Assembly (NCBI GenBank): GCA_043817075.1 | Contig: JBDRHG010000004.1 | Coordinates: forward strand, 45,767-109,766 | DNA: 64,000 nucleotides | Direction: 5' to 3' | Origin: an archaeon | GTDB lineage: Archaea; Nanobdellota; Nanobdellia; Woesearchaeales; JAADFO01 | Shown here: positions 8,766-62,026 of the stretch, piece after piece | How the letters are laid out: each line of letters begins with the position of its first letter | Numbering within the stretch: position 1 is the stretch's first letter | Program-made: the position numbers and the translations under genes | The notes under the pieces: model-generated | What the model was told of the DNA's origin: nothing | The model's database searches: none | What the model saw: the letters and a program-made list of their open reading frames with translations, nothing else

Positions 8766-8787
8766 GGCCCCCGCCTTTACCGTCCCT

Positions 8788-9059: not shown

Positions 9060-9124
9060 TCTTTTACTATTTTCTGAGGACGAAATTCGATTCTTTTATA
9101 AATAATTCTTGGTTATCCGTACCG

Positions 9125-27486: not shown

Positions 27487-29202
27487 ATGACAATTACGAC
27501 TAGACGTCCTTTGACTTGGTTTTGTATCCTAATTTTCTGCATCTGTGCCCTCTCATTAACAGCATTCGCAGATGTGAATGTCGGCAATTCCCAGGACTGG
27601 AAGGACGTCTATTCAATGATGCTCTATTCAGGCCTCAACGATCAGCGCGGCATATTCCTCAATTCTGAATCCATCATCGGCATCACTTCCCGCATCACTC
27701 CTGCCGATTCCATCACCATGTTCGAATCCACCGACACGCCTCTCATCAGGCGGGCCTTTGGTCAATTGGCCTCCGCTGGATTCGAGGTCAACGAGGAGGT
27801 GCGGTCTAGCAATTTCAATCTCGATCTCGATCCTGAGAACGGCCGGTACTTGCTTGTCTCCACCAGTAACTACCGTCTCGCTTTACCAATAGCCGCGTAT
27901 GCCGTCAAGACGAATTCCTGGGTGCTCCTGGTCGACCAGGACAATCTGGATGAAGTGGCGAACCGCATCGAGGACGCAAGCCAGGTCATCGCCGTGGGCA
28001 ATTTCCCCCGCGATGTGCTCGAGGCGATCGAACCTTCGTTTACCGAATGGATCAACAACAACAATATCTACACGGACAGCGAGGAGATCGCGTCCCGTTT
28101 CGGCGAGATCCCCAGTGTCGTGATCACCGACGGATCCACCCTCGAGGCGGAGTTCTTCACGACACCCAATCCTGTCATCCTCTCAGGCTACAACCGCATC
28201 ATCGACGACACGATCACCTTTCTTCAAGAGAACAACATCAAGAATGTCGTCATCGTCGGCAACAAGCTCTCGGTGGTCGGTGAGCAGATACGCGCGAGCA
28301 GCAACAAGGAGATCAGCGTCTTCATCAAGTTCGGCCAGAGCTCGACACAGAAGCTGGGACGGGTCTACGCCCTGACCATGTATCCGATGCCGATGCCGAC
28401 GCTCAAGATCACGGTCAACAGGGTCATCTACAACCCGATCAAGAAAGAGCTCATCGCTTACTACAATAACCTGGGAAATGTCGGCACCTATACGTTGACC
28501 ACGATGACGGTCAAGGTTGACGGCGACGAGATCGGTTCAGCGTCGGACGAGGACGTCATCTTCCTCGGTGCAGGAGAAGTCCTGCCTGTCGCATACGACC
28601 TCGACATCCCTATCGATGACATCGACGAGAACACCATCGTCGAGTTCTATACATCATTCGGCATCCAGCCCACTGAGCTCGACGCCTTCCTGACCATGAC
28701 GAACAAGTTCGGCCCTCCCTTCTCGCTCACTCTCGAGCTCGAGGAAATCGAAGAGGATCCCGCGGTCATCACGCTCGACGATGTCGCCTATTACCTGCGC
28801 TACAAGCGAATAGGTATGGATCTGACCAACAACGTCACGACCCCTGTCTACTTCAATGCCAAGATCCGCAATCTCATCGTAAACGGCCTCAAGAAGGACC
28901 TGTATACCGAGGGAGAGCTCATCGGCGGCGAAGGAGCCACAGTCTACATCCCAATCGAACTCGACGATATCGATCTCGAGGAGAACAGGAATTTCGATAT
29001 CACAATCGCCTATGGCAGCGATTCATCCTTCCTCTTCAACTCCATCGAGAAGAAGTTGCCGTTCAGGACCGAAGGCAGTGCGGGCATCGTTGGCTTCGTG
29101 ACCTCGATCGTGGGCGAAGGATCCATCCCTGCGCTCATCGGTCTCATCGTCGTTGTTCTCATCATCGTGACGATTGTTGTAGTCAAGAGGAGAAAAAGAT
29201 AA
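27487..29202 (+). CDS. large surface protein L1: signal peptide, three Rossmann-like (CWB2-like?) modules, two Ig/CARDB-like modules, C-terminal TM anchor
   Basis: 571 aa with gggggaaggt upstream of the ATG. Signal peptide ..CICALSLTAFA/DV. Repeated modules of the type ..YLLVSTSNYRLALPIAAYAVKTNSWVLLVD..VIAVGNFP... The C-terminus is SIPALIGLIVVVLIIVTIVVVKRRKR. Paralogous to L2 over its full length. Confidence 0.7.
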   Translation: MTITTRRPLTWFCILIFCICALSLTAFADVNVGNSQDWKDVYSMMLYSGLNDQRGIFLNSESIIGITSRITPADSITMFESTDTPLIRRAFGQLASAGFEVNEEVRSSNFNLDLDPENGRYLLVSTSNYRLALPIAAYAVKTNSWVLLVDQDNLDEVANRIEDASQVIAVGNFPRDVLEAIEPSFTEWINNNNIYTDSEEIASRFGEIPSVVITDGSTLEAEFFTTPNPVILSGYNRIIDDTITFLQENNIKNVVIVGNKLSVVGEQIRASSNKEISVFIKFGQSSTQKLGRVYALTMYPMPMPTLKITVNRVIYNPIKKELIAYYNNLGNVGTYTLTTMTVKVDGDEIGSASDEDVIFLGAGEVLPVAYDLDIPIDDIDENTIVEFYTSFGIQPTELDAFLTMTNKFGPPFSLTLELEEIEEDPAVITLDDVAYYLRYKRIGMDLTNNVTTPVYFNAKIRNLIVNGLKKDLYTEGELIGGEGATVYIPIELDDIDLEENRNFDITIAYGSDSSFLFNSIEKKLPFRTEGSAGIVGFVTSIVGEGSIPALIGLIVVVLIIVTIVVVKRRKR

Positions 29203-29263
29203 AAGGATGGTATCGGCAGTCAACGTCGCGATGAGTTCTTCCCATACACCACGAGGGAGATGC

Positions 29264-30997
29264 ATGACATCAAGAGGATCGATACGAGGCAGGCAGGGTA
29301 TTGCCCGAAACGTCATCTTGCCTTTCCTCGTCTTGCTCATCATCCTGGGTACCGTGGTTCCCATCGTATTCGCCGATAAAGAATATGATTACGTCCTCGT
29401 CGCCAACACCAAGGACTGGCGCGAGCTTTACCTGGCCGCCTTCTATGCAGGGATCAACAATGCTGAGCTCATCTACTTCAAGACGCTTGGCGAGGCCCAG
29501 ATAAAATCCGGTCAGCTGGACGAGGACGAAGAGATCGTCATCCTGGAGCCTGAGAAGAATGCTGTGGTCAAGAACTACGAGTCTTTCCTCGAGGTCAATG
29601 GCTACCAGGACTTCTATACGATCGATTACGAGAGCCTCCAGGATCTCCAGGAGATTCTCTGGGATGATGCCAAGGCGGACGGATATCTCGTGCTGTATCC
29701 CGAGTTCGGTGTCGAGGCCGCTTCGGCCACTGCCTATGCACTGGAGCAAAATCTCATCCCGCTGTTCATGGATGAGTATAACATCGGGGAGGTCAAGAAG
29801 ATCATCAAAGGCTCTGATAATGTCATTTTCTTGGGCCATTTCCCCATCCGTCTTCTAGACGATATGACCGGAGAGTTCATCACCGATCATGCAGACAAGA
29901 ACGCCAAGGCCATCACCTCACGTTATCTGGAGGACTATGACGGGGCCTGGGCCATCATCACCAGGATCGACAGGATTGACCCCTACACGCTCACCCAAGG
30001 CCCTCCGCTTCTGGTCTACACCGGTTCGACCGAGGACATCGCCGACCTCATCAAGGACAGCAGCATCACCAATGTTGAGATCATCGGTGCGGACACTGTC
30101 GCGATCGCCCAGGAGGCTGAGATCATCTCTGGCAAGGATCTCCGTCTGGTGCTCAAATATGCGAGGACCGTGACCAACCTGCCTGGCATGGGGGGTAAGC
30201 TCCTTGACTTGGACACCATCAAGTTCGACTTTCCTGCAGTTGGTCTCGAGATTGTCGATACGGTCTACTACCCTTCGCTCAATGTCCTCGCCATCACCTT
30301 CAGGAGCACCGGCAATGTCCCGACAAGGTTCTTCTCACAGGTGGAGTTCGGAGGCGAGGCTCTCTCCGACGACAATATCCACTCTGTGCCTCCGGGCGAG
30401 ACCATCACCATCCCTTATTTCCTCGGTTCAGCCGATGACGACACGGTCCGTGTGGTCATCAACACCCAGTATGGCATCGAGCCGCCGTTGACCGAACGCA
30501 TCAAGACGACCGAAGGCCTTCCGATCATCCTCCGTAACGCCACCTCTGATTCTCACATCGAGCAGTCGACAATCGAGATGCGCTCTGTGGGTTATGACGA
30601 TGGTCAAGGCATCCTCTTCTTGGAGCTCTTCAACCCCACCGACGCTCCGATGCAGGTCTTTGCCGAGATCATCTTCGCTCCTGGCGATGTGCTCGCCTCG
30701 GGTCTGATCACGATCCCGTCTCTGGAGAGCGGGATCGCCCAGATACCTACCCCGTACAGGCGCGGAGATTCCATCATCGACAACAACTATCGCATCAACG
30801 TCTTCCACGGGGAGAAGGACACCTTATTCATGACCAATTTCTCCATGGCCGTCTCCCAGCGTGTGTCCGAGCCGCTCATCGTGGGCAATGTCATCGCTCT
30901 CGGCCCCACAAGCATCACGATCTTTGCGGTCGTGCTCCTCATCGTGCTCTTCCTCATCCTCGCCGCCAGGAGGAGACGACGGAAAGAGGAGGGGTGA
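29264..30997 (+). CDS. large surface protein L2 (paralogue of L1) with C-terminal TM anchor
   Basis: Signal peptide ..VILPFLVLLIILGTVVPIVFA/DK. Modules include ..GYLVLYPEFGVEAASATAYALEQNLIPLFMD..VIFLGHFP... The C-terminus is GPTSITIFAVVLLIVLFLILAARRRRRKEEG. The start is ambiguous between 29207, 29231 and 29264; the gene begins 5-60 nt after the L1 stop. Confidence 0.7.
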   Translation: MTSRGSIRGRQGIARNVILPFLVLLIILGTVVPIVFADKEYDYVLVANTKDWRELYLAAFYAGINNAELIYFKTLGEAQIKSGQLDEDEEIVILEPEKNAVVKNYESFLEVNGYQDFYTIDYESLQDLQEILWDDAKADGYLVLYPEFGVEAASATAYALEQNLIPLFMDEYNIGEVKKIIKGSDNVIFLGHFPIRLLDDMTGEFITDHADKNAKAITSRYLEDYDGAWAIITRIDRIDPYTLTQGPPLLVYTGSTEDIADLIKDSSITNVEIIGADTVAIAQEAEIISGKDLRLVLKYARTVTNLPGMGGKLLDLDTIKFDFPAVGLEIVDTVYYPSLNVLAITFRSTGNVPTRFFSQVEFGGEALSDDNIHSVPPGETITIPYFLGSADDDTVRVVINTQYGIEPPLTERIKTTEGLPIILRNATSDSHIEQSTIEMRSVGYDDGQGILFLELFNPTDAPMQVFAEIIFAPGDVLASGLITIPSLESGIAQIPTPYRRGDSIIDNNYRINVFHGEKDTLFMTNFSMAVSQRVSEPLIVGNVIALGPTSITIFAVVLLIVLFLILAARRRRRKEEG

Positions 30998-31061: not shown

Positions 31062-31727
31062 ATGATCGCAGCCAAGAAGACCTGGGTCGTGATTCCTGCC
31101 TTCAATGAGGGGGAGCGCATCGTCCCGGTCATCAAGGAGGCTCACCACCACGCTCAAGGCGTCGTAGTGGTCGACGACGGCTCTTCTGACTCCACGTCTG
31201 ACCAGGCACAAGGTGCAGGAGCCATCGTGCTACGCCATTGCATCAACCTCGGAAAGGGTGCCGCACTCAAGACCGGCTGCGATTTCGCTATAGAGCAGGG
31301 TGCCGGACGTATCGTGGTCATCGATGCTGACGGCCAGCATGACCCGGCAGACATCCCCCGTATCCTCAAGGCCTTGGAAGGCCATGACATCGTCTTCTCA
31401 TTCCGCAGGCTGGACACACGCATGCCATTCGTCCTGCGCTTGGGCAACCGCGTCATCTCCTCAATCGTAACCATTTTATATCATGTGCGCCTCAGGGACA
31501 CCCAATGCGGCTTCCGGGCGTTTTCGTCCGAGGCCTACGGACAGGTGCGGTGGGACGCGACGGATTACAGCATGGAGTCTGAGATGATCGCCCGGGCAGG
31601 CAGGAACCGTCTTAGGTATACAGAGATTCCCATCGCGACCGTATATGCGGACAAATACAAAGGCACGACAGTGATCGACGGCGTCAAGATCGTCGCGGAT
31701 CTTTTGTGGTGGAAAGTCAAGCGATGA
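31062..31727 (+). CDS. family 2 glycosyltransferase (polyprenol-phosphate sugar synthase-like)
   Basis: WVVIPAFNEGERIVPVI...VVVVDDGSSDST (GT2 N-terminal signature) and ..VIDADGQHDP (DxD region). Confidence 0.85.
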   Translation: MIAAKKTWVVIPAFNEGERIVPVIKEAHHHAQGVVVVDDGSSDSTSDQAQGAGAIVLRHCINLGKGAALKTGCDFAIEQGAGRIVVIDADGQHDPADIPRILKALEGHDIVFSFRRLDTRMPFVLRLGNRVISSIVTILYHVRLRDTQCGFRAFSSEAYGQVRWDATDYSMESEMIARAGRNRLRYTEIPIATVYADKYKGTTVIDGVKIVADLLWWKVKR

Positions 31728-31762: not shown

Positions 31763-32101
31763 ATGCTTGGTATCCAGATCTTCGGCATCCTCTTCGGCCT
31801 CGGTCTCATCTACCTGACCTTCCTCTACTACAAACGCAAGGAGTTCTCTGTCTCCGAGCTCGTGTTCTGGATGATGTTCGCCCTGCTCTTCATCTCCATA
31901 TCCCTATTCCCCTCCATCCTCGATCCCATCGTCGAGACATTCGACTTCGCCAGGACATTCGACTTCCTGGTCGTCGTCGGTTTCATGGTCATCGTCGGGC
32001 TGGTCTTCTATATGTTCTCCGTGGTGCAGCGTACGCAGAAGAAGGTAGAGAACCTCGTGCGGACGTTAGCCATCGAGCGTCGTAAGAAGCCAAAACGCTA
32101 A
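31763..32101 (+). CDS. small 4-TM membrane protein, DUF2304-like GT2 partner
   Basis: 112 aa with a hydrophobic core and a basic tail. Size, topology and position immediately after a GT2 gene match the DUF2304 arrangement known from bacteria. Confidence 0.55.
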   Translation: MLGIQIFGILFGLGLIYLTFLYYKRKEFSVSELVFWMMFALLFISISLFPSILDPIVETFDFARTFDFLVVVGFMVIVGLVFYMFSVVQRTQKKVENLVRTLAIERRKKPKR

Positions 32102-35363: not shown

Positions 35364-36506
35364 ATGGGAATCACGCTCACGAAATGCATCGACCGCGTGG
35401 TCATCGGAGGCCTCGTCGGCCTGCTGTCCCTGCTGCGCAGGAAGAAGATTGTCCCGACGCAGCCTCGACGGATCCTGCTCATCCAGTTATGGGGCATCGG
35501 TGAGACCGTCTGCGTTCTGCCCGCCCTCTTCCATCTGCGCAGGCATTTTCCGACGGCGACTATCGACATGCTCTGTACCCCGCGGAACAAGGCTGTCTTC
35601 TCAGGGAACAGAGACCTATCGGATGTCCATGTCATCGAGCCCGGCGCGAGAGGCGTCCTCGGCTGGGTGTTCTCAGGCGTCAGGAAGACCGGGCGCTACG
35701 ACGTCGTCATCGACATGGAAGAATATCTCAATGTCTCGGCTGTGCTCGCTTGGGCTTCAGGCCATGCGCTGATCGGTTATGCTCATGGGTTGCGCGGCAA
35801 GGTCTTCGACAAGACCGTCAAGTATCGCGACGACCAGCATGTGGTGCATACATTCGAGGACCTGCTCGTACCGTTGGGGATCACTGACCATGCTCATGCC
35901 CTCCCTCCTCTCAACTTTTCCGAAGCGGATCTGAGGGCGGCGAAGAGAGTCCTCGCCTCGGCAGGCGTCGATACATCCCGCTTCATCGTCATCGTCCCTG
36001 GAGCGGCCGAGACTGCTCGGAGCCGTATATGGCCCTGGAAACGCTTCGGATCGCTGGCACGAAAGCTCCATCGACAAGAAGACGTCACCGTCGTCGTCAC
36101 CGGCAGCAAGAGCGAACGTGAGCTGGCCGGCTTGGTCCAGACCGCGGCAGGGAAAGGGACGGTGAGCATCGCCGGTAAGCTCAACCTGACCGAGCTCTAC
36201 GCCCTCATCAAGCTCGCCTCCCTTGTCGTCTCAAACGACACCGGCCCGATGCATATAGGTGCTGCGATGGGCACACCGACCGTAGGTTTGTTCGGGCCGA
36301 ACCTGCCCACCCGTTTCGGCCCTTTCGGCGAAGACAATGTCGGCATCTATAAGGAGGGTTCCTGCCGTCTCTCACCCTGTCTCAATGTCCATCTCGGTCA
36401 GACCCCTGACTGCCTCTATCCGAAGAATAGCGCTGATTACCAGAAATGCATGAAGGCGATATCGGTCGACGACGTCCTCAAGGAAGCGAAACGTCTTCTC
36501 TCGTGA
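35364..36506 (+). CDS. family 9 glycosyltransferase (heptosyltransferase-like)
   Basis: ILLIQLWGIGETVCVLPALFHLRRHFP (GT9 N-terminal block) and the C-terminal LIKLASLVVSNDTGPMHIGAAMGTPTVGLFGP (the characteristic GT9 xNDTGPMHxAAAxGxP motif). Confidence 0.85.
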   Translation: MGITLTKCIDRVVIGGLVGLLSLLRRKKIVPTQPRRILLIQLWGIGETVCVLPALFHLRRHFPTATIDMLCTPRNKAVFSGNRDLSDVHVIEPGARGVLGWVFSGVRKTGRYDVVIDMEEYLNVSAVLAWASGHALIGYAHGLRGKVFDKTVKYRDDQHVVHTFEDLLVPLGITDHAHALPPLNFSEADLRAAKRVLASAGVDTSRFIVIVPGAAETARSRIWPWKRFGSLARKLHRQEDVTVVVTGSKSERELAGLVQTAAGKGTVSIAGKLNLTELYALIKLASLVVSNDTGPMHIGAAMGTPTVGLFGPNLPTRFGPFGEDNVGIYKEGSCRLSPCLNVHLGQTPDCLYPKNSADYQKCMKAISVDDVLKEAKRLLS

Positions 36507-36594
36507 TGGGCACCCAACTACTAGAAACATGCATCATAAGATACGTATCGGACAAAACGATAAAACAAGAACATCACATTTGATCATCTGATTC

Positions 36595-37353
36595 TCAACC
36601 GTGATGCGTCGGCATATGCTTGAGGAAGTACGCGTGCAACTGTCCCACCTCTGCGAGTCTGGGCAGCACTTCGCGTTCCAGCGATCTGCACCCTGAGAAG
36701 AACGGCAATGCCTCGGGCGAGAATGCATAGATGCCGCTGTTGACCACGAGGGATCCTGCGGCCTTGGGCTTCTCGACGAATTCGACCACCATATCCCCTT
36801 CCACGACTGCAACGCCCATGCGCTCGGTCTGTTTGCTGGTGGAGAGCCCTACGGTGGCGAGCCTTCCGCTCGTCAGGTGGTTTGCGGCGAGCTTCGCCAG
36901 GTCCTCTTCGCATGAGAGGTCGCCGCTGAGCGCCAAGAACGGCCCCTCGAGCGCATCGCCTACCATCCGGATGGCATCGGCCGTTCCCTTTGACGCGATC
37001 TCCCTGACCATGCAATCCGGCCAGTGTTTATCCTGTCCTTTCGAGATCTCCTCCAGTGCTGGCGAGGTGTCGGATCCCTTCTCCACAGCGATGATGGCGC
37101 GCTTGACGCCTGCGCGGGCCAAAAGGGAGAGCTGTTGCGAGAGCAGACACTGCTTCCCTACATCCTTGGTCGCCAGCGGCACATGCGCGGAAGAGAGCAT
37201 GATGACTGCCTCCTCGATCCTTGGGGAGATGGCTTTCCGGAGCAGTGCCTCCATCGCTTGGCTTCGTGAGGGATATCTTGATGTCTCCACCACGCTGTCC
37301 ACGGCCGCCAACAGGTCGCTGGAGATGGATATGGCGATCTTCTCTTTTGGCAT
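36595..37353 (-). CDS. ribbon-helix-helix (CopG/NikR-like) domain fused to a sugar-nucleotidyltransferase-like domain lacking the GxGTR signature
   Basis: N-terminus KIAISISSDLLAAVDSVVETSRYPSRSQAMEALLRKAI fits an RHH. The remainder aligns by eye to NTP_transferase (GTADAIRMVGDALEGPFLALSGD..HL.SG.LATVGL....TERMGVAVVEGDMVVEFVEKP.....LVNSGIYAFSPE). The expected LAGGxGTRL is replaced by MLSSAHVPL. Confidence 0.65.
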   Translation of the reverse strand: MPKEKIAISISSDLLAAVDSVVETSRYPSRSQAMEALLRKAISPRIEEAVIMLSSAHVPLATKDVGKQCLLSQQLSLLARAGVKRAIIAVEKGSDTSPALEEISKGQDKHWPDCMVREIASKGTADAIRMVGDALEGPFLALSGDLSCEEDLAKLAANHLTSGRLATVGLSTSKQTERMGVAVVEGDMVVEFVEKPKAAGSLVVNSGIYAFSPEALPFFSGCRSLEREVLPRLAEVGQLHAYFLKHMPTHHG

Positions 37354-37360
37354 ACTCGAG

Positions 37361-37459
37361 GTATGAAAAAGTATGAAATATAAACATTTCTATTCTTCAT
37401 CATATGGGTTCCTTTGAAGAAATATTTATAAACTCGACGGTAAATAGTAGTATGAAATG
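37361..37459. promoter_or_regulatory. divergent intergenic control region: 3 x GTATGAAA direct repeats plus a TATA box (aatatttataaa, 37421-37432)
   Basis: gtatgaaa occurs at 37361-37368, 37371-37378 (10-bp phasing) and 37450-37457; the last copy overlaps the gmhA ATG at 37457. The TATA-like box ends 25 nt before that ATG. Confidence 0.45.
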
Positions 37460-38044
37460 GTACTACCAGACAAGAAAAAGGTTGCTGAACAGGTCAAGAG
37501 CTCGATTCAGGTCATAGATCAGTCCGAGAATCTGCTTGTGGAATCGCTTCCTGCGATCGCAGAGGCTTGCATCAAGGCCATAAGCGGCGGCGGCAAACTG
37601 CTCATCGCCGGCAACGGCGGATCGGCCTCACAGTCCATGCACTTCTCGGCTGAATTGACCGGGAGATATCTCCGAGACCGCAAAGGCCTGCCATGCCTCG
37701 CGTTGACCACGGACTCGGCGATGATCACGGCCTGGTCCAACGACTCGAGCTTCGATGAGGTGTACTCCCGTCAGGTCGAAGCGCTGGGGAAGAAAGGCGA
37801 CGTGCTCATCGTATTGACCACCAGCGGCAACTCCGAGAACATCGTCCAGGCGATCGAGACAGCCAAGGACCTGGGGCTCACGACGGTGCTGTTCACCGGC
37901 AAGGGCGGCGGAAAGGCGCACGGCATGACGGATATCGAGCTCAATGTCGATGACACCGCGACGCCACGCGTGCAGGAGAACCACCTGCTCGCCTTGCACA
38001 TCCTCGCAGACCTCATCGAACAGTCCTTCGTGTCTCAGGACTAG
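37457..38044 (+). CDS. gmhA: phosphoheptose (sedoheptulose-7-phosphate) isomerase, SIS domain
   Basis: KLLIAGNGGSASQSMHFSAELTGRY...R.GLPCLALTTDS...TAW.ND..F..V..RQV.ALG.KGDVLI.L.TSGNS.N matches GmhA. Followed by the other heptose pathway genes. Confidence 0.85.
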   Translation: MVLPDKKKVAEQVKSSIQVIDQSENLLVESLPAIAEACIKAISGGGKLLIAGNGGSASQSMHFSAELTGRYLRDRKGLPCLALTTDSAMITAWSNDSSFDEVYSRQVEALGKKGDVLIVLTTSGNSENIVQAIETAKDLGLTTVLFTGKGGGKAHGMTDIELNVDDTATPRVQENHLLALHILADLIEQSFVSQD

Positions 38045-38136
38045 GCTCCAGGCTGACCGGTACCGGACGGACCCATGACATTCATGTACATGCTTGCATT
38101 CATGAAAATCCAAACAAGCTCCTGAAGCGAAATCCA

Positions 38137-39108
38137 ATGGAACGACTCAGAGGAATCATCAACAACTTCTCCGATGTCAGCGTATTGGTCATCGGAGACA
38201 TCATGGTGGACAAGTACATCTGGGGTGATGTCCATCGCATCAGTCCAGAGGCCCCGGTGCAGATCGTGAATGTTCGGAAGGAGAGTCATTCTCCTGGTGG
38301 GGCAGCCAACACCGCGGCCAATATAGGTGCGCTGGACGGCAAGACTTTTCTCGTCGGTGTCATGGGCAACGACGCGGCCCGTACCACGCTGAACGTCATC
38401 CTATCCGAGCGGGGCGTAGAGACCAAAGGGGTCATCATCGATCCCGCCAAACCGACCACCCAGAAGGTACGCGTCGTGGCCCAAGGTCAGCAGTTGCTCC
38501 GTATCGATTACGAGAAGTCCGAGTTCATCTCGGGAAAGGACGAGAAGCGCGTGTTAGACTATGTGAAGAGGACCCTTCCGAAGGTCAACATCGTCGTCAT
38601 CTCCGATTATGCGAAAGGGCTGGTCACCGAGAGCTTGATCCGCGGCGTCGAGAAGCTCGCAGTCCAGGAGAAAAAAATGGTGATCATCGATCCCAAGCCC
38701 ACGCATCATGTCCGCTACCAGAACGCATCTCTCATCACGCCGAACCTCAAAGAGGCTTTTGGCATGGCAGGTATTCCCTATTCAGACAAGGATGATGTGG
38801 TCAAGGTCGGCAAGATGCTCCTCGAGCGAACCCAGAGCAATCTGCTCATAACGCGGGGCGCACAGGGAATGAGTCTGCTGCTCAAGGACGGGACCGTCTC
38901 CCATATCCCCACGATGGCCAGGGAGGTGTTCGATGTGACCGGCGCAGGGGACACCACGATCGCTGCTCTCGCTCTCGCGCTAGGTGCCGGTGCCACGTTC
39001 GAGGATGCCGCCACCATCGCCAACTACGCGGCCGGCATCACCGTCGGCAAGATCGGGACTTCGACAGTCTCGAGACCAGAATTGCTCAGGGGGGTCGAGA
39101 GACCATGA
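38137..39108 (+). CDS. hldA: D-glycero-beta-D-manno-heptose-7-phosphate kinase (RfaE/HldE domain I, stand-alone)
   Basis: Ribokinase/PfkB fold: VLVIGDIMVDKYIWGDV.RISPEAPVQIV......PGGAANTAANI, and the C-terminal DVTGAGDT anion-hole motif. Confidence 0.85.
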   Translation: MERLRGIINNFSDVSVLVIGDIMVDKYIWGDVHRISPEAPVQIVNVRKESHSPGGAANTAANIGALDGKTFLVGVMGNDAARTTLNVILSERGVETKGVIIDPAKPTTQKVRVVAQGQQLLRIDYEKSEFISGKDEKRVLDYVKRTLPKVNIVVISDYAKGLVTESLIRGVEKLAVQEKKMVIIDPKPTHHVRYQNASLITPNLKEAFGMAGIPYSDKDDVVKVGKMLLERTQSNLLITRGAQGMSLLLKDGTVSHIPTMAREVFDVTGAGDTTIAALALALGAGATFEDAATIANYAAGITVGKIGTSTVSRPELLRGVERP

Positions 39109-39641
39109 GAGCGGTCTTTCTCGACAGGGACGGGGTCATCAACGAGGACCATGGCTACATCCATAAGGTCGAGGACCTCGAGATACTTCCCGGTGTCATC
39201 GACGGGCTCAAGCTGCTCCAGCACATGGGGTTCGTGCTCATCATCGTCACCAACCAGTCCGGTATCGGTCGGGGCTTCTATACCAAAGAGCAGTATGACC
39301 TATTCCACACCGAACTCCTCAAGCGGCTCGGGAAAGAAGGTATACAGATTGACAAGACCTATATGTGTCCACATCAACCGACGGATGGATGCGATTGCCG
39401 CAAGCCATCACCCAAGCATGCCGAGGATGCTGAACAGGAGTTCGGCATATCCCTCGCAGATTCCTATATCATAGGGGATCATGCATCCGACATCGGGTTC
39501 GGCAGGAATTCCGGCATGACGACCGTCCATATCCTCACCGGCCATGGGAAGAAGCATGGGGATATCGAGGCAGACCACCAATCGGAGGATTTCGAAGATG
39601 CAGTCGCATGGATCGAGCAGATCGAATTGCAGAAAGCTTAA
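39105..39641 (+). CDS. gmhB: D,D-heptose 1,7-bisphosphate phosphatase (HAD, GmhB-type)
   Basis: AVFLDRDGVINED.GY......E.LPGV...LK.L...GF.LIIVTNQSGIGRG..T......H......L...G......Y.CPH.P...C.CRKP and ..IGD...D. This includes the GmhB zinc-binding Cys motif. ATGA overlap with the kinase gene. Confidence 0.88.
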   Translation: MRAVFLDRDGVINEDHGYIHKVEDLEILPGVIDGLKLLQHMGFVLIIVTNQSGIGRGFYTKEQYDLFHTELLKRLGKEGIQIDKTYMCPHQPTDGCDCRKPSPKHAEDAEQEFGISLADSYIIGDHASDIGFGRNSGMTTVHILTGHGKKHGDIEADHQSEDFEDAVAWIEQIELQKA

Positions 39642-39645
39642 ACCG

Positions 39646-40107
39646 ATGGATGCCTTGCCTGCGATCTGCAGGCGTCTCCGTAGCGAAGGCAAACGCATCG
39701 TGACGGCCAACGGCAGCTTCGACCTGATGCATGCCGGTCATCTCGCCTTCCTCGAGGAGGCCGCGCGTCAAGGGGATGTCCTCGTCGTCGGTCTCAACAG
39801 CGATGCGTCGATTCGCAGCTACAAACGTGGCCGTCATCCGCCTCGTCCCATCATCGCGGAAGAATTCCGTGCAGCCATGATCGCCGGCCTCTCCTGCGTC
39901 GACTTTGTCACGATCTTCGATGAGACTGTCCCGCTGCATTTCCTCGAGAAGGTCCATCCTGATGTGTTCTGCAACGGCGAAGAGTATGGTACGGATTGTA
40001 TCGAAGCGCCGTTGCTCAAGGAGATGGGTGCGCATCTCCATCTCATACCCAAATATGCCGGGCTCTCGACAAGCAATATTCTGAGAAAGATCCTACGCGG
40101 ACGATGA
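39646..40107 (+). CDS. hldC: heptose-1-phosphate adenylyltransferase-like cytidylyltransferase-fold protein (RfaE/HldE domain II, stand-alone)
   Basis: KRIVTANGSFDLMHAGHLAFLEEAARQGDVLVVGLNSDASIR..K (HxGH nucleotidyltransferase motif, RfaE domain II-like). ATG 39646 is preferred; the track start at 39544 overlaps gmhB in another frame. Confidence 0.82.
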   Translation: MDALPAICRRLRSEGKRIVTANGSFDLMHAGHLAFLEEAARQGDVLVVGLNSDASIRSYKRGRHPPRPIIAEEFRAAMIAGLSCVDFVTIFDETVPLHFLEKVHPDVFCNGEEYGTDCIEAPLLKEMGAHLHLIPKYAGLSTSNILRKILRGR

Positions 40108-40122
40108 TTGCGTACGGTACAG

Positions 40123-40827
40123 TCATCGTTTGAACTTGTAGCGGACGATGAGCCAGATCATGACGAGGCCGAGGGTAAAAGCCTTCCACATCGAGCCGGT
40201 GATCTTCGATTCCCCGATTCGGCCCCGGTAGTTGACCGGGATCTCGATGCACCTAAGCCCGTTCTTGATCGCCAGGATCATGAACTCCGGCGAGAAATGG
40301 CTGGTGCCGACAGAGAACTTCTTCTGGATCTTCTTGAGTGCAGGGCGCTTGATGAGCTTGAAGGTGCATCCTACATCCGTCAGGCATGGTCCGTTGTGCC
40401 AATACTCCATGAGCTTTGCGACGAAGACGTTGCCGAGGCGCAGGAACCAGTTCATGTTGGCGTTCGACCAGATGCACTCCTTGGATGTCCTGGTGCCGAA
40501 CACCACGTCGAACTCTCCGGAGTAGAGAAGCAGTTTGGTGATATCATCGGCCAGGAACGTGCCGTCGGGCTCGACCGTGATGATGAGATCGCCTTTGGCC
40601 TCTGCCATACCTCGCCGCAACGCCCAGCCGTATCCTTGCCTCGTCTCCTTGACCACTCGCGCCTTGGTCTTCTTGGCCTCTGTTGCGGTGCCGTCCGTCG
40701 AGTTGTTGTCCACGACGATGATCTCATCTGCCACGCCGGTGGCAAAGAATTCTCCCACTGCTTTCTTGATGTTCTTCCCCTCGTTATACGCGGGGAACAC
40801 CACTGAGACTTTCTGGTTCTTGTACAT
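40123..40827 (-). CDS. family 2 glycosyltransferase (Dpm1/GtrB-like polyprenol-phosphate glycosyltransferase)
   Basis: VSVVFPAYNEGKNIKKAV.EF......DEIIVVDNNSTDGTA..A and ..TVEPDGTF.. (DxD-like). Confidence 0.85.
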   Translation of the reverse strand: MYKNQKVSVVFPAYNEGKNIKKAVGEFFATGVADEIIVVDNNSTDGTATEAKKTKARVVKETRQGYGWALRRGMAEAKGDLIITVEPDGTFLADDITKLLLYSGEFDVVFGTRTSKECIWSNANMNWFLRLGNVFVAKLMEYWHNGPCLTDVGCTFKLIKRPALKKIQKKFSVGTSHFSPEFMILAIKNGLRCIEIPVNYRGRIGESKITGSMWKAFTLGLVMIWLIVRYKFKR

Positions 40828-40860: not shown

Positions 40861-41979
40861 CTATTCGAGCAATCCTTTCTCCTGCAGCTCCGAAGTGGCC
40901 TTGTCGACCAGGTCTTCGGCCTCCTGGCCCTTGGACCAAGCGATGAGCTCGGCCATGCCATCAGAGAAGGAGACCTTAGGATCGAAGCCAAGCTTATCCT
41001 TGATCTTGCTGATGTCTGCGAAGCAATGCCTGACATCCCCTTTCCGGAAATTGCCGGTGATCTTGGGTCTGATGTCTCCATCTTTGCCATAGAGCTTAGC
41101 GATGGTCTCTGCCACCTGCAGGATGCTGACCCGGTTGCCGCTGCCCACATTGAACACCTCGTCGTTTGCAGCCTTGGATCCCATGGCCAGGATATTGGCC
41201 TGCGCGATGTCATGCACCGAGACGAAGTCGCGTGATTGGTCGCCGTCCTCGAAGACCAGCGGCGGATTGTCGTTCTTGATCCTGCTCTGGAAGATGGCAG
41301 CGACACCGGTATAAGGATTATTGAGGCTCTGACGGGGACCGTAGACATTGAAATAACGTAGCGCCGTCGTCGGGATGCCATAGGCCGAGCCGACATTGAG
41401 ACACATGAGCTCCTGGTCCATCTTGGTCAGCGCATAGACAGAATTTATCTCCTGATTCTTGGTCTCTGGTGTGGGTTCAGGCGTGAGCACCATGCCGCAT
41501 AAGGGGCAATGCACTTCCCAGTCGCCGCCCTTCATCTGCTCCACAGGTCTGAGCGACGGTGACACCGGTCCGCAGGCCTTGCACACATAAGCGCCTTCAC
41601 CGTATGTCGACATGCTCGAGGCGACCACGACCTTCTTGATGTCGTGTTCTTCATTGGCCAGGACATCGAGCATATTCGCGGTGCCCATGGTATTGACCCC
41701 AACATATCGGGAAATCTGGTACATGCTCTGTCCCACCCCGACCATGGCGGCCTGGTGGAGGAGTATGTCGACATCCTGCATCGCGCTTTTGAGCGATGAG
41801 CGGTCCAGCACATCCCCTTTTATCAGCTCTGCTTCTTTATTGAGGTAATCCGGAGCGGCTTTGTGGACCTGCGGCTCGAAGTTGTCAAGGATACGGACAT
41901 CATGACCCTTTTCCACGAGAAGGTCGACGACAAATGAGCCGATGAATCCAGCGCCCCCCGTCACTAAAACGTGCGCCAT
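40861..41979 (-). CDS. NAD-dependent sugar epimerase/dehydratase (extended SDR) with an inserted Cys4 zinc-ribbon
   Basis: VLVTGGAGFIGS (Rossmann fold) and a YxxxK context (YALTK). An insertion YVCKACGPVSPSLRPVEQMKGGDWEVHCPLCGMVL carries two CxxC pairs. Confidence 0.85.
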   Translation of the reverse strand: MAHVLVTGGAGFIGSFVVDLLVEKGHDVRILDNFEPQVHKAAPDYLNKEAELIKGDVLDRSSLKSAMQDVDILLHQAAMVGVGQSMYQISRYVGVNTMGTANMLDVLANEEHDIKKVVVASSMSTYGEGAYVCKACGPVSPSLRPVEQMKGGDWEVHCPLCGMVLTPEPTPETKNQEINSVYALTKMDQELMCLNVGSAYGIPTTALRYFNVYGPRQSLNNPYTGVAAIFQSRIKNDNPPLVFEDGDQSRDFVSVHDIAQANILAMGSKAANDEVFNVGSGNRVSILQVAETIAKLYGKDGDIRPKITGNFRKGDVRHCFADISKIKDKLGFDPKVSFSDGMAELIAWSKGQEAEDLVDKATSELQEKGLLE

Positions 41980-42002
41980 TGTGGTCTTTCCGAGGAAGAG
42001 AT

Positions 42003-42014
42003 AAATATTTAAAG
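42003..42014 (+). promoter_or_regulatory. TATA-box-like element (aaatatttaaag) 25 nt upstream of ATG 42039
   Basis: Recurrent box and spacing. Confidence 0.4.
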
Positions 42015-42038
42015 CTTTGCAAAATACGTCGAGAGAAG

Positions 42039-43697
42039 ATGATTCTGCATAAAGAGAGGGTCATTGAGTCGGTCGTTTTGGTGGTTTTCGCCATCGCCTT
42101 CTTGGTCACGGGCTCAGGCAACATCCTTGACAGCCAGATCACTCATCCCTTCCCTTATGGTTTCTACGCGTCTGACGCGTTCATGCATCTGGGCTACAGC
42201 CAGGGCCTTGAGGAATCAGGGGCCTGGCAGCATTACCCTGCCTACATGTCGGTCGGGCACAGTGATGTGGATGCCTTCAATCCGCCGGTGTTCTACCAGC
42301 TCGGGGTCCTCACCCGCTTCATCAACGACCTCCCTTTGCATGACGGTCTCTACCAGATCCTGACCATCATGGTGCTCTTCGCCTGCCTGACCTTCTATCT
42401 CCTCATCCACCGCTACAATCCCAAGGTCGCGATGCTGTCCTTGCCCTTGATGCTCTTGGTCAATTTCGGCAATTTCCGCATCTTCTACCTCTTCGGCACG
42501 TGGATATTTGCGGCAGGATCGTTCTTCCTCATCGTGGCGTTCTTCTTCATCAGCAGGATGAAGGACAAACAGGATGTCATCATGCTCGGCATCATCCTTG
42601 CCGCGATCGCGATGACCCACACTTCGGAATTCATCTTCTCTGTGCTCGCGATCGGCTTCTATCTGCTCATCAAGCTGTTCACCGGCGGCATCACTGTCAA
42701 AGAGGTCATTCGGTATGTCGTCTCGGGTGCCATCGCCGTCCTGCTCGCCTCCAACTATCTCATCATCTTCTCTAAGACCTGGGCCAAGACCGCACCCTTC
42801 CGGTTCCAGATCCTGCGGCTCGAGGAATACTCCGGCAACATCTTCCCTAGCCTCTGGACATTTCCCTGGGGGCTGCTGATCATCTGCCTCATCGGTCTCG
42901 CACTCACTGTGATGGCGCTGAGGAAGAAGCAGAACGACGCCGCGGTCTTCGGGCTATTCATGTTCATCATCGGTTTCTCCAACTTCATCGGTTTTGGCCA
43001 TCGGGCATTCCAGACCCGGCATTTCTGGCCCATCTATCTAGCGGTCTTCTTCGGCTTCGCGCTGTTCCAGCTCATGCGTACCGTGCCTGGAGCCCGTTCC
43101 ATCATCATCACCGGTGCCGTGAGTGTCGCGGTCATCGCGGCCGTCGCCGGCCTGAGCTATATGCCGATGCGCGGACCAGGGCTTCTCGACCAGTTCCATT
43201 GGGAGGCATTCTCCTGGATAGGGCATAACCTGCCACAAGACGCCAAGGTGCTGTACTTCTACGGCGACATCTACAACCAGAACGCTGTCCTCTTCACCTC
43301 GAAGAGAGTGTCCTATCGTGTGCTGGACGCATCCATCGCCAAGGGTATCCAGGAGTTCCGCATCAATCGTAACTACGAAGTCCGCACCACTGGCGAAGAC
43401 ATGTCCGACTATGGCTATCGTACCGGGTTGTTCTCATTCGGATACCATAAGGAAGATGATCCTGAGTTCTACAAGAACAAGGAACGTGACATCTGCGAAT
43501 TCGATTATTTCGTCTTCGACCAGGCCACGAGGAACGAGGTGCTCGCGCAGTATAATCTCGTGGTCTATGCAACCATGGTGGAAGAGAAATCGGTCGAGCG
43601 TGTGTTCGACAACGACGTCGTCATCATCGCGAAGAACAAGATGGTGGGTGGCGACTGCATCACCCCCAAGCAGTTCGAGGTCCCTGCGGAAGCTTGA
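42039..43697 (+). CDS. large polytopic membrane protein with C-terminal soluble domain (GT-C-like glycosyltransferase candidate)
   Basis: 552 aa with about 11-13 TM helices. The first-loop acidic/aromatic motif YASDAFMHLGY is reminiscent of the GT-C/STT3 first loop. No WWDYG motif. The C-terminal ~170 aa are soluble. Confidence 0.55.
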   Translation: MILHKERVIESVVLVVFAIAFLVTGSGNILDSQITHPFPYGFYASDAFMHLGYSQGLEESGAWQHYPAYMSVGHSDVDAFNPPVFYQLGVLTRFINDLPLHDGLYQILTIMVLFACLTFYLLIHRYNPKVAMLSLPLMLLVNFGNFRIFYLFGTWIFAAGSFFLIVAFFFISRMKDKQDVIMLGIILAAIAMTHTSEFIFSVLAIGFYLLIKLFTGGITVKEVIRYVVSGAIAVLLASNYLIIFSKTWAKTAPFRFQILRLEEYSGNIFPSLWTFPWGLLIICLIGLALTVMALRKKQNDAAVFGLFMFIIGFSNFIGFGHRAFQTRHFWPIYLAVFFGFALFQLMRTVPGARSIIITGAVSVAVIAAVAGLSYMPMRGPGLLDQFHWEAFSWIGHNLPQDAKVLYFYGDIYNQNAVLFTSKRVSYRVLDASIAKGIQEFRINRNYEVRTTGEDMSDYGYRTGLFSFGYHKEDDPEFYKNKERDICEFDYFVFDQATRNEVLAQYNLVVYATMVEEKSVERVFDNDVVIIAKNKMVGGDCITPKQFEVPAEA

Positions 43698-49060: not shown

Positions 49061-49082
49061 GCGGCCTCTTTGATCCCAAATC

Positions 49083-49670: not shown

Positions 49671-49710
49671 GATAATCCCCTCCTGCTGGAGCCCCTGACA
49701 CGAGAAAGGC

Positions 49711-57794: not shown

Positions 57795-57804
57795 GGTCAC
57801 GTGC

Positions 57805-61023: not shown

Positions 61024-61030
61024 GCGCGCT

Positions 61031-61930: not shown

Positions 61931-62026
61931 GCTGACCGGAAAGACATTCTGGGCTCTTATAAAGGTTTCTATGCGCTCTCCTCGAGGAGGGAAACATTTA
62001 AATGGCTCTCGGAGGTCTCAACGAAC

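Follow-up and report, generated by a model that had tools for sequence, protein, structure and literature searches.

Where does heptose go when the genes of the bacterial ADP-heptose/LPS pathway stand in an archaeon, probably a member of DPANN, in which Kdo2-lipid A as acceptor is impossible? This question is raised by a locus in the window, i.e. the whole 64-kb stretch of DNA analysed here, where the same four enzyme families are encoded in one operon in identical chemical order. The preliminary description had reported these enzymes in a row at 37457-40107, with kinase and adenylyltransferase as separate genes and a GT9 gene about 1 kb upstream, and this arrangement was confirmed as follows.

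35364-36506, plus strand: GT9, archaeal-clade glycosyltransferase, predicted ADP-heptose-dependent heptosyltransferase (PF01075)
36595-37353, minus strand: RHH-NT, ribbon-helix-helix plus degenerate sugar-nucleotidyltransferase-like domain (PF00483 and NikR N-terminal matches)
37354-37456, unstranded: divergent promoter/operator region (repeats and TATA-like sequence)
37457-38044, plus strand: gmhA, sedoheptulose-7-P isomerase, SIS family (NF010546, TIGR00441, PF13580)
38137-39108, plus strand: hldA, stand-alone kinase (TIGR02198 rfaE_dom_I)
39105-39641, plus strand: gmhB, heptose-1,7-bisphosphate 7-phosphatase, HAD-IIIA with Cys/His Zn loop (NF006506, TIGR00213)
39646-40107, plus strand: hldC, stand-alone heptose-1-P adenylyltransferase (TIGR02199 rfaE_dom_II)
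40861-41979, minus strand: SDR sugar epimerase/dehydratase with a CxxC...CxxC insertion (GalE, 150 bits)

The genes gmhA, hldA, gmhB and hldC form a tight same-strand operon of intact ORFs, in which gmhB overlaps hldA by 4 bp and all catalytic motifs of the enzymes are present. The hldA product scored 369.6 bits with rfaE_dom_I, over the curated cutoff of 345, versus only 102.7 bits for ribokinase, and the NCBI record of an identical protein carries the correct name. For the other three, the right family was the clear best match, yet scores were slightly under NCBIfam cutoffs: gmhA reached 200.7 bits with its top match, phosphoheptose isomerase NF010546 (cutoff 276), and 188.7 bits with TIGR00441 (cutoff 209), and contains GNGGSA and SGNS motifs; gmhB reached 171.1 bits with NF006506 (cutoff 178) and 137.9 bits with TIGR00213 (cutoff 149.6), with DRDG, TNQS and the Zn motif CPH-x6-CDC; and hldC reached 134.9 bits with its top match rfaE_dom_II (cutoff 181.5), versus 30 bits for TagD-type glycerol-3-P cytidylyltransferase. 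Both grouping checks, on HldA and on HldC, thus sided with the RfaE domains. The nearest solved structure to the hldC product is HldC of B. pseudomallei (5X9Q, 100 bits). It carries HAGH and LSTS motifs, the latter in the local sequence KYAGLSTS without Arg at the STTR5 position; this Arg, which confers CTP/UTP promiscuity according to the motif definition in PMC11461863, is absent from 42/42 HldCs of the clade. As listed, the hldC ORF starts at 39544 and overlaps gmhB; translation most likely begins at Met35 (39646), given that residue 41 is the first to be matched by the HMM.

No HldD was found within the 64-kb window using NCBIfam profiles, and the gmhA-hldA spacing is only 92 bp. The best SDR of the window (40861-41979) was rejected as HldD, with 112 bits for heptose_epim (cutoff 274.6), lower than its GalE score. 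The earlier remark that no typical HldD is evident therefore holds for the window and, since the 6-epimerase is absent, the D,D form of ADP-heptose is the expected product.

Since pathways of this kind are typical of bacteria, and the label Flavobacteriales is attached to one of the HldA homologues (54% identity), the cluster could be suspected to be bacterial DNA, brought in by mis-assembly, contamination or very recent Gram-negative transfer. This explanation is largely refuted, and we leave it a negligible probability: the contig carries an Archaea_SRP RNA at 8787-9060 (148 bits, gathering score 96.5), the GC content of the cluster (0.56-0.57) matches that of the window (0.545), the closest named HldA homologues are Woesearchaeota or Nanoarchaeota, and 80/80 loci of the GT9 clade were deposited as archaeal, with AglB and GG-reductase-family genes.

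The GT9 gene, which ends 951 bp before gmhA, is an intact ORF of 380 aa with a PF01075 score of 129.9 bits (cutoff 22); it includes the stretch NDTGPMHIGAAMGTP, its GenBank/NCBI name is already correct, and it belongs to an archaeal clade, scoring far under the curated NCBIfam cutoffs for HepI/II/III/RfaQ. In the AF2 model (pLDDT 90.6), a canonical Rossmann N-lobe is preceded by a 34-residue N-terminal helix, and the top Foldseek matches are 3TOV, WaaF and WaaC (TM 0.60-0.77 on the query). Residues E47, R221, E251 and D292 align to WaaC D13, K192, E222 and D261; E47, R221 and D292 are invariant in 78/78 clade members and E251 is found in 73/78. Thus, the archaeal GT9 shares the GT-B fold and the ADP-heptose-contacting positions of WaaC-type heptosyltransferases, in line with the heptosyltransferase named in the preliminary description, but differs from them in having Glu for the catalytic Asp, the N-terminal helix and a four-Cys insertion. 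We strongly infer that the adjacent GT9 is the consumer of the ADP-heptose made by the operon, with Glu47 as predicted general base in place of WaaC Asp13.

The CAZy family GT9 also includes a non-heptose activity, which would suit a GT9 that takes a different donor while ADP-heptose has another role, be it in signalling, as a building block of secondary metabolites or as a soluble metabolite. The function of NDP-heptose in archaea is, moreover, described as unknown in PMC11573728. We consider this reading very unlikely, as the ADP-heptose-binding residues of GT9 are conserved, the genes lie inside a glycan island, and GT9 and the pathway go together, hldA lying at most 10 kb from GT9 in 42 of the 46 loci with at least 6 kb of sequence downstream of GT9.

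The four-Cys insertion (C334, C339, C350 and C362, conserved in 70-77 of 78 clade members) has the spacing C-x4-C-x10-C-x11-C and lies just before the last C-lobe helix. A similar four-Cys metal finger is found late in the C-lobe of TibC/AAH (BAHT), which are ADP-heptose-dependent GT-B enzymes, and the TibC Fe ligands C339, C342, C358 and C370, at a comparable place, are needed for activity (PMC4358343). GT9 could then be a protein O-heptosyltransferase acting on Ser/Thr of surface proteins, whose genes lie nearby, and the nearly invariant Cys module would be a TibC-like iron finger serving substrate binding or oligomerisation; Foldseek indeed retrieves TibC at E ~1e-8. However, this match (TM ~0.57, 13% identity) is weaker than those to WaaF/WaaC, the Cys spacing differs (x2/x15/x11 in TibC versus x4/x10/x11), the TibC N-terminal beta-barrel has no counterpart seen in GT9, and a sequence comparison with PDB chains detected nothing similar to the Cys module. 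We regard protein O-heptosylation as a doubtful alternative.

Gene order in relatives was compared across 80 species-level archaeal genome loci with a GT9 of this clade. Its consensus runs GG-reductase, AglB, GT2, DUF2304, GT9 and RHH-NT (on the opposite strand), followed by gmhA or a cupin gene, hldD or a GSU2086-family gene, hldA, gmhB and hldC, and in most relatives a GT2 gene follows hldC. The full gene set was present in 35 sources (34 loci and the window). STT3/AglB (Pfam 113-152 bits, invariant WWDFG) was found upstream of GT9, with the same orientation, in 50 of the 57 loci with enough upstream sequence, and in 41 of those 50 it ends ~1 kb from GT9. In relatives, only GT2 and DUF2304 stand between AglB and GT9. 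A geranylgeranyl-reductase-family gene (TIGR02032, 182.7 bits, cutoff 158.8) precedes AglB in 44 loci, itself preceded by an S-layer-like gene in 24. The GT2 orthologue was found upstream of GT9 in 69/80 loci, and DUF2304 between the two in 66/80. The corresponding pair in the window is:

31062-31727, plus strand: GT2, PpgS/AglJ-like polyprenyl/dolichyl-phosphate sugar synthase (PF00535)
31763-32101, plus strand: DUF2304 small three-TM membrane protein, conserved GT2 partner (PF10066, 70.1 bits)

This GT2, 58% identical to a relative's orthologue (locus L007), scored 138.9 bits with PpgS, its best match, and 94.2 bits with AglJ, and is under the NCBIfam cutoffs of PpgS and of AglJ/AglK-type Dol-P-sugar synthases. 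The ~112-aa protein with three hydrophobic segments encoded after it recalls mycobacterial PpgS (Rv3631) with its small membrane partner Rv3632, which we take to be a DUF2304 member. A synergistic relation of PpgS and Rv3632 has been described (PMC6487176).

With heptose genes beside AglB in about 50 related species, the destination of heptose is most likely a cell-surface glycan; the genomic partner of the archaeal GT9 is AglB, not waa genes as in bacteria. As to the acceptor, left unknown in the preliminary description, the AglB-GT2-DUF2304-GT9 order of relatives, with GT9 lying ~1 kb downstream of AglB, narrows the choice and points to a precursor of an N-glycan linked to dolichol. We consider it probable that ADP-D,D-heptose feeds GT9, which would heptosylate this precursor, and that the divergent RHH-NT regulates the operon. 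Going by the gene order of relatives, the PpgS/AglJ-like GT2 with its DUF2304 partner would prime the acceptor, a dolichyl-phosphate-anchored sugar or oligosaccharide at the cytoplasmic membrane face; further GT2/GT4 additions would follow, and the glycan would be flipped (no flippase was identified) and transferred by AglB to Asn of surface proteins. Heptose in the N-glycan of T. acidophilum is a precedent (PMC11407970).

In the window itself, AglB was not detected anywhere, and antiporter, LemA and TPM genes intervene between the GT2-DUF2304 pair and GT9; the AglB link is thus borrowed from relatives. Many archaeal glycan genes are neighbours of AglB, and such proximity is no proof of heptose on Asn. 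The two neighbouring surface-protein genes, moreover, encode few N-x-S/T sequons, 1 and 2, which speaks against the N-glycan reading. Besides the genes above, the 30-kb glycan island (in total four GT2, three GT4 and methyltransferases) includes:

40123-40827, minus strand: GT2, AglJ/Dol-P-hexose transferase-like (PF00535; AglJ 94.4 bits)
41979-43697, plus strand: Mem572, polytopic membrane protein, ~9 TM plus C-terminal domain (recurs beside heptose operons)

Mem572 had no match in Pfam, NCBIfam or PDB, is found in 7 sources (6 loci and the window) and is paralogous to the product of 47381-49165 (hhalign 99.3%); a GT-C-like role is suspected. Three such large polytopic proteins in an island without AglB, together with the recurrence of Mem572 and Mem594 beside heptose operons in several loci and the fact that the nearest structural relatives of GT9 act on the glycolipid Kdo2-lipid A, suggest another lipid-anchored glycan outside AglB as acceptor. 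This could be a lipoglycan or glycolipid of the membrane, comparable in archaea to the LPS inner core, or else a polysaccharide, secreted or capsular, that Mem572/Mem594/GT87-like proteins would assemble. We hold this possible though unlikely, since 50 of the 57 informative loci keep the AglB-GT2-DUF2304-GT9 adjacency, against no more than 6-7 sources for each of the families Mem572, Mem594 and Mem850.

The N-glycan reading includes regulation by RHH-NT, the gene that lies within the 951 bp between GT9 and gmhA; in 56-57 loci it is likewise placed between GT9 and gmhA/cupin and read from the opposite strand. Its residues 4-45 give NikR/CopG-like N-terminal matches, and residues 65-219 match PF00483 from profile position 28, without the GxGTRL loop (family consensus AVLLLKGEHQ where AVILAGGxGTRL is expected). 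The 103-bp spacer to gmhA contains GTATGAAA three times (37361, 37371 and 37450, the last reaching into the gmhA ATG), of only four copies in the window versus 1.09 expected, and a TATA-like TTTATAAA at 37425-37432. At the same place, the heptose-operon promoter of relatives has a 17-bp palindrome, GTATGAA-N3-TTCATAC, present in 44/56 RHH-NT upstream regions versus 13 matches elsewhere in 1.27 Mb, 8 of which lie at most ~50 bp upstream of gmhA/cupin and 2 more in or beside RHH-NT; the full palindrome is not in the window. RHH-NT is predicted to be a ligand-sensing regulator of the heptose operon: it would bind the GTATGA-type repeats overlapping the gmhA promoter, and its catalytically degenerate nucleotidyltransferase-like domain may respond to a sugar nucleotide or a sugar phosphate, with ADP-heptose and heptose-1-P as plausible ligands, and so tune the operon.

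The novelty of archaeal ADP-heptose genes had been overrated. They were published for Iplasma in 2013 (AGMH cluster, PMC3750248) and for the glycan clusters of M. maripaludis KA1/JJ (PMC12667266), and archaeal heptose biosynthetic enzymes were shown biochemically by Tang et al. 2024, according to the commentaries PMC11461863 and PMC11573728. These systems likewise have homologues of gmhA, hldA/E, gmhB and hldC within glycan or S-layer glycosylation loci, and they were proposed to act in glycosylating the cell surface. Neither ADP-heptose genes in archaea nor the presence of heptose in an archaeal N-glycan, known from one case, is thus new. No description of an archaeal GT9 heptosyltransferase was found in the retrieved literature on archaeal ADP-heptose, hence no consumer is named there. 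To the published clusters, the present loci add a dedicated GT9 clade as the inferred consumer, the linkage of this GT9 to AglB, and a dedicated regulator together with its putative operator; these three elements are new.

The RHH-NT gene, the consensus order of relatives, the 17-bp palindrome and a second, GDP-alpha-heptose-like gene set (49083-52375, minus strand) were absent from the preliminary description. This set consists of:

51422-52375, minus strand: SDR
50682-51425, minus strand: HddC-like NTP-transferase (HddC 117 bits)
49711-50685, minus strand: HddA-like GHMP kinase (HddA best NCBIfam match, 154 bits)
49083-49790 as ORF, likely start 49670, minus strand: second GmhA-like SIS, GmhA2 (120 bits)

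The GDP-D-glycero-alpha-D-manno-heptose pathway (GmhA, HddA, GmhB, HddC) serves Gram-positive S-layer glycans and Campylobacter/Burkholderia capsules. The SIS protein, the kinase and the nucleotidyltransferase resemble its enzymes but are all far under curated cutoffs (600 for HddA), and no second GmhB was seen in the window. The kinase is nearest to heptose kinases, with 118-142 bits to 3K85, 4N3O and 4USK in the PDB versus 70 to fucokinase, and GmhA2 has Asp where the first GmhA has Glu in the GNGGSA...AEL segment.

The five open reading frames that the preliminary description had assigned to 35364-40107, a GT9 glycosyltransferase and four ADP-heptose genes, are present and intact at the locus:

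35364-36506, + strand, GT9 glycosyltransferase; Pfam PF01075 at 129.9 bits (gathering score 22)
37457-38044, + strand, gmhA; 200.7 against a cutoff of 276 and 188.7 against 209.45, the best match by a wide margin
38137-39108, + strand, hldA; TIGR02198 equivalog-domain at 369.6 (cutoff 345)
39105-39641, + strand, gmhB; 171.1 against a cutoff of 178 and 137.9 against 149.6, overlapping hldA by 4 bp
39646-40107 (ORF listed from 39544), + strand, hldC; TIGR02199 at 134.9 bits, the best match (cutoff 181.5)

Profile scores separated the kinase from ribokinase (102.7 bits, compared with 369.6 for RfaE domain I) and the nucleotidyltransferase from glycerol-3-P cytidylyltransferase (30 bits, compared with 134.9 for RfaE domain II). 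The translations carry the expected motifs, i.e. GNGGSA...AEL and SGNS in GmhA, the PfkB motifs DVTGAGDT (GAGD) and TPNLKEA (NxxE) in HldA, the HAD-IIIA motifs DRDG, TNQS and GDHASD with the Cys/His zinc loop CPH-x6-CDC in GmhB, and HAGH (HxGH) with KYAGLSTS, corresponding to the (F/L)xxGxSTT pattern, in HldC. The hldC frame had been listed from 39544; the + strand gene is there, but its start is likely to be 39646, because residue 41 is the first one matched by the HMM, and the gmhB stop is 5 bp ahead of Met35. From their sequences, the four genes can be firmly predicted to form an operon for ADP-D,D-heptose. The closest solved structure to HldC is that of B. pseudomallei (5X9Q, 100 bits). 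That the cluster is bacterial DNA is scarcely credible: an Archaea_SRP RNA at 8787-9060 (148 bits) identifies the contig as archaeal, and cluster and window have the same GC content.

A typical HldD is indeed missing, as had been stated, the best SDRs of the window reaching 112 and 69 bits against the TIGR02197 cutoff of 274.6. The higher-scoring of them was rejected as an HldD substitute on score, since its GalE match (150 bits) exceeds its heptose_epim match:

40861-41979, - strand, GalE/LegB-like SDR with an inserted CKAC...CPLC, a zinc-ribbon-like four-Cys element that sits midway through the Rossmann domain

Homologues of this SDR (25-31% identity) come after the post-hldC GT2 in several related loci.

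The AF2 model of the GT9 protein (pLDDT 90.6) is a GT-B fold whose two Rossmann-like lobes are superposable on WaaC/WaaF, and in Foldseek its best match was the Veillonella GT9 3TOV (TMq 0.77), followed by WaaF (0.68) and WaaC (0.60-0.64). Residues were placed by alignment with E. coli WaaC, WaaF, WaaQ and WaaU together with HMMER alignments, by which Glu47, Arg221, Glu251 and Asp292 correspond to Asp13, Lys192, Glu222 and Asp261 of WaaC. Glu47, Arg221 and Asp292 are found in all 78 members of the GT9 clade and Glu251 in 73 of them, and the counterpart of the WaaC D261-T-G is D292-T-G. We take K192, E222 and D261-T-G of WaaC to be its ADP-heptose-binding residues (2H1H structure), and Glu47 in place of the catalytic D13 of the G-D motif would be a conservative change. 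Against the NCBIfam LPS heptosyltransferase equivalogs all scores fell below cutoff (107 against 170.2 for HepIII, 99.3 against 134.6 for HepII, 86.4 against 185.3 for HepI and 94 against 467 for RfaQ). The protein is a GT9 predicted to work like a heptosyltransferase, without being orthologous to the LPS enzymes, and very probably consumes the ADP-heptose of the operon. The three outcomes named in advance as speaking against the finding (a kinase or nucleotidyltransferase of another family, a GT9-like protein outside the heptosyltransferases, a bacterial contig) all turned out otherwise; the finding is real and its original interpretation correct. More than 100 homologues share 42-50% identity with this GT9, the named ones being from Woesearchaeota or Nanoarchaeia, and the identical protein at NCBI, encoded on a 254,711-bp contig, is entitled 'MAG: glycosyltransferase family 9 protein [archaeon]'. 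The host being archaeal, and lipid A or Kdo genes having gone unnoticed in the window, an acceptor other than (Hep-)Kdo2-lipid A is to be expected.

The GT9 protein has two features that the E. coli enzymes lack, a ~34-residue N-terminal helix and a ~25-residue insertion before the last helix, which carries C334, C339, C350 and C362, kept in 70-77 of the 78 clade members. The helix was considered as a transmembrane segment and rejected by Kyte-Doolittle analysis; it is at most amphipathic. The insertion resembles the iron finger of TibC (C339, C342, C358 and C370; PMC4358343) in its comparable position and its four Cys, which would fit a direct heptosylation of protein by GT9. However, the Cys spacing differs, sequence similarity to any PDB chain was undetected, and the Cys module alone gave only chance matches in the PDB (nuclear-receptor zinc fingers, E ~0.6). 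Moreover, TibC itself was a clearly weaker Foldseek match (TMq ~0.57, 13% identity), the canonical N-lobe of the model is preceded by a helix, unlike the beta-barrel of TibC/AAH, and the protein falls outside the BAHT enzymes with their N-terminal beta-barrel, beta-hairpin thumb, Cys4 iron finger and protein Ser acceptor. We consider direct protein heptosylation quite improbable.

The suggested survey of related archaeal genomes did find the same cluster. One genome per GTDB species was scanned with two peptide patterns specific to the GT9 clade, a scan that reaches this clade only, more distant versions in bacteria or other archaea lying outside it, and that gave 80 loci, all deposited as archaeal; gene order was derived by tblastn and all-against-all ORF clustering. 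The consensus runs from an S-layer-like gene (opposite strand) through a geranylgeranyl-reductase-family gene, AglB, GT2, DUF2304 and GT9 to RHH-NT (opposite strand; a predicted regulator described below), gmhA or cupin, hldD or a GSU2086-family gene, hldA, gmhB, hldC and a further GT2. Of the 46 loci whose sequence continues for 6 kb or more past GT9, 42 have HldA in the flank. STT3/AglB (Pfam 113-152 bits, WWDFG invariant) lies upstream on the same strand as GT9 in 50 of the 57 loci with enough upstream sequence, and in 41 of these it ends ~1 kb upstream of GT9, GT2 and DUF2304 alone separating the two. The gene that precedes AglB scored 182.7 for the geranylgeranyl-reductase family (cutoff 158.8). 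Locus L039, of a 'Nanobdellati archaeon', has 53.6% GC and, like the window, has DUF2304 and GT9 separated by an unusual antiporter/LemA/TPM insertion; it is for these reasons the closest relative seen. It carries AglB upstream of GT2.

Many loci (L001, L002, L009, L013, L016 and others) are titled 'uncultured Methanosarcinales archaeon' (binchicken, SRP co-assemblies). Their AglB-GT2-DUF2304-GT9-heptose synteny is that of Woesearchaeota MAGs, at 45-49% identity, and we therefore treated the label as unreliable; it looks like a placeholder or an error.

Synteny in these relatives suggests a route for the heptose. The PpgS/AglJ-like GT2 synthase (31062-31727, + strand) and its three-TM DUF2304 partner (31763-32101, + strand) would make a Dol-P-anchored sugar, to which GT9 would transfer heptose from ADP-D,D-heptose, and the finished glycan would be moved onto protein by AglB. 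Heptose in the N-glycan of T. acidophilum is a precedent (PMC11407970). In the window, the place that AglB occupies in relatives, preceding GT2, is taken by the genes of two surface proteins:

27487-29202 and 29207-30997, + strand, tandem paralogous secreted proteins of ~570-600 aa

Each begins with a signal-like N-terminus and ends in a C-terminal TM anchor plus an Arg/Lys-rich tail, and neither matched any family. Against an N-glycan, AglB was undetected in the 64-kb window, no flippase was found, and N-x-S/T sequons are few in these two proteins (1 and 2 sites), which show no enrichment relative to the window mean of 0.37 per 100 aa. The lack of an AglB in the window would suit a lipid-linked glycan that is not handled by AglB; we regard this as unlikely, with AglB standing next to the GT2-DUF2304 pair in most relatives. 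As for the donor, CTP/UTP promiscuity of the STTR5 type was considered for HldC and rejected: the Arg of the motif (as defined in PMC11461863) occurs in none of the 42 HldCs of the clade, and ADP-heptose is therefore the expected donor. Another donor or another role is very improbable.

The 951 bp between GT9 and gmhA, where the preliminary description had overlooked a gene, contain RHH-NT (36595-37353, - strand), in which an N-terminal NikR/CopG-like ribbon-helix-helix (residues 4-45) is joined to an NTP_transferase domain. In the latter the Pfam match begins only at profile position 28; across 57 orthologues a consensus LLLKGEHQ stands in place of the glycine-rich nucleotide loop GGxGTRL, and the RHH segment hardly varies. 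We read RHH-NT as a putative DNA-binding regulator with a non-catalytic ligand-binding domain; its ligand would presumably be a sugar nucleotide.

In relatives, the spacer from RHH-NT to the first heptose gene contains a TATA-like box followed directly by the 17-bp palindrome GTATGAA-N3-TTCATAC, and on the RHH-NT side GTATGA/GTAGTA/GTATTA (GTAKKA) repeats at ~10-bp spacing. The palindrome stands directly upstream of gmhA or cupin in about 55 related loci. Allowing up to 2 mismatches, it was found in 44 of 56 RHH-NT upstream regions, compared with 13 matches in the remaining 1.27 Mb. Eight of these 13 precede a gmhA or cupin gene by no more than about 50 bp, several of them at loci with another gene between RHH-NT and the operon, and 2 others are located inside RHH-NT or immediately upstream of it. 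The full palindrome is absent from the window, where the 103-bp spacer (37354-37456) carries GTATGAAA three times, two copies at a spacing of 10 bp and a third that extends into the gmhA ATG, out of 4 copies in the whole 64 kb (1.09 expected), and TTTATAAA at 37425-37432. Strong comparative evidence thus predicts that RHH-NT and the palindrome are a dedicated regulator-operator pair.

In this clade, a cupin and a GSU2086-family protein seem to have repeatedly taken the place of GmhA and HldD, respectively. A 120-aa cupin (PMI-C-terminal/lyxose-isomerase-like) occupies the exact gmhA slot in 19 hldA-containing loci, and the two are almost mutually exclusive (gmhA only in 27 loci, both in 1, neither in 4), making the cupin a candidate non-orthologous sedoheptulose-7-P isomerase. 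It is the first gene after the operator in the following loci:

L008, L011, L019, L023, L026, L027, L035, L036, L040, L048
L051, L053, L055, L071, L074, L076, L077 and others

In the window the gap between gmhA and hldA is 92 bp, and neither here nor in L039 does it hold a gene. An HldD-type SDR precedes hldA in 18 loci, and that of L007, lying in this gap, is a true HldD (285.4 against the cutoff of 274.6). In 24 loci hldA is preceded by a GSU2086-family protein (NF052581, 420 bits) with a deoxyhypusine-synthase-like NAD fold, a possible alternative enzyme for modifying or epimerising the heptose. These loci include L003-L006, L009, L010 and L015, and the gene at L010:13537-14442 is an example in the slot of the HldD-type SDR. 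A 518-aa ORF of L039 looked like a GmhA-HldA fusion, a reading that was rejected: GmhA has its own ORF in another frame, and the additional upstream part of the long HldA ORF is spurious. In L040, L048, L073 and L074, a single ~333-aa ORF (cluster c27) follows hldA at the place of gmhB and hldC and may be a GmhB-HldC fusion.

Taking all of this together, and with a confidence somewhat short of even, we propose that the GT9 clade is the missing archaeal consumer of ADP-heptose, a metal-finger-bearing, Glu-based enzyme acting on a dolichol-linked N-glycan precursor, encoded in an AglB-centred supercluster across Woesearchaeota-like DPANN, in which a sugar-nucleotide-sensing regulator of a novel type, made of RHH and a dead nucleotidyltransferase, would act on GTATGAA-N3-TTCATAC, and cupin and GSU2086-family proteins would replace GmhA and HldD. 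Since GT9 adjoins AglB and a Dol-P-sugar synthase, heptose would enter a surface N-glycan of DPANN. These archaea live attached to hosts, and to our knowledge almost nothing has been established about their surfaces. Some wider interest comes from ADP-heptose being a potent agonist of innate immunity.

The pathway itself is already known in archaea and its enzymology is ordinary; the NCBI pipeline already names the hldA and GT9 of the window correctly. ADP-heptose clusters near S-layer or Agl genes have been described in Iplasma (2013, PMC3750248), and likewise in M. maripaludis KA1/JJ (PMC12667266). According to two commentaries (PMC11461863, PMC11573728), Tang et al. (2024) found that archaeal enzymes make ADP-heptose, and both call the purpose of NDP-heptoses in archaea unknown. 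A full-text literature search found no description of an archaeal GT9 or heptosyltransferase. The new elements are the archaeal GT9 clade, its linkage to AglB and the RHH-NT/operator module. Together with about 50 relatives of like synteny, the locus gives the question of what archaeal heptose is for a concrete answer that can be tested. RHH-NT and its operator are a clean predicted pair for EMSA and ligand screening, and the cupin and GSU2086-family proteins would, if their proposed roles are true, represent undescribed enzymatic solutions to two steps of a textbook pathway, the isomerisation and the epimerisation of heptose.

The glycan island contains further genes:

41979-43697, + strand, polytopic membrane protein Mem572
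47381-49165, - strand, Mem594, paralogue of Mem572 (hhalign 99.3%)
49083-52375, - strand, second heptose-like activation set in one operon: SDR, HddC-like NTP-transferase, GHMP kinase, divergent GmhA-like SIS
56796-59676, - strand, adjacent genes for a FemAB-like/GNAT acetyltransferase_6 and an asparagine synthase (glutamine-hydrolysing)
60929-63355, + strand, polytopic 808-aa protein with a weak GT87 match (37 bits)

The second set, which is followed by the Mem594 gene, fell far below all NCBIfam equivalog cutoffs (HddA 154 against 600, HddC 117 against 300), and the closest solved relatives of its kinase are D-glycero-D-manno-heptose kinases (3K85, 4N3O, 4USK). This suggests that heptoses of both the ADP-beta and the GDP-alpha type may be made in one glycan island. 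Mem572 and Mem594 had no Pfam, NCBIfam or PDB match, and Mem572 compared with AglB by hhalign gave a probability of 11%. They share an invariant P..ASD motif in the first loop. Several genomes have them next to heptose operons, frequently accompanied by small conserved proteins (clusters c22 and c23); our guess is a GT-C-like glycosyltransferase. The pair at 56796-59676, which inside the island has GT4 genes and a gene resembling polysaccharide deacetylases on its flanks, hints at an amino-acid or amide decoration of a sugar. GT87 is a GT-C mannosyltransferase family, and the 808-aa protein is a further candidate Dol-P-sugar-dependent transferase of the island.
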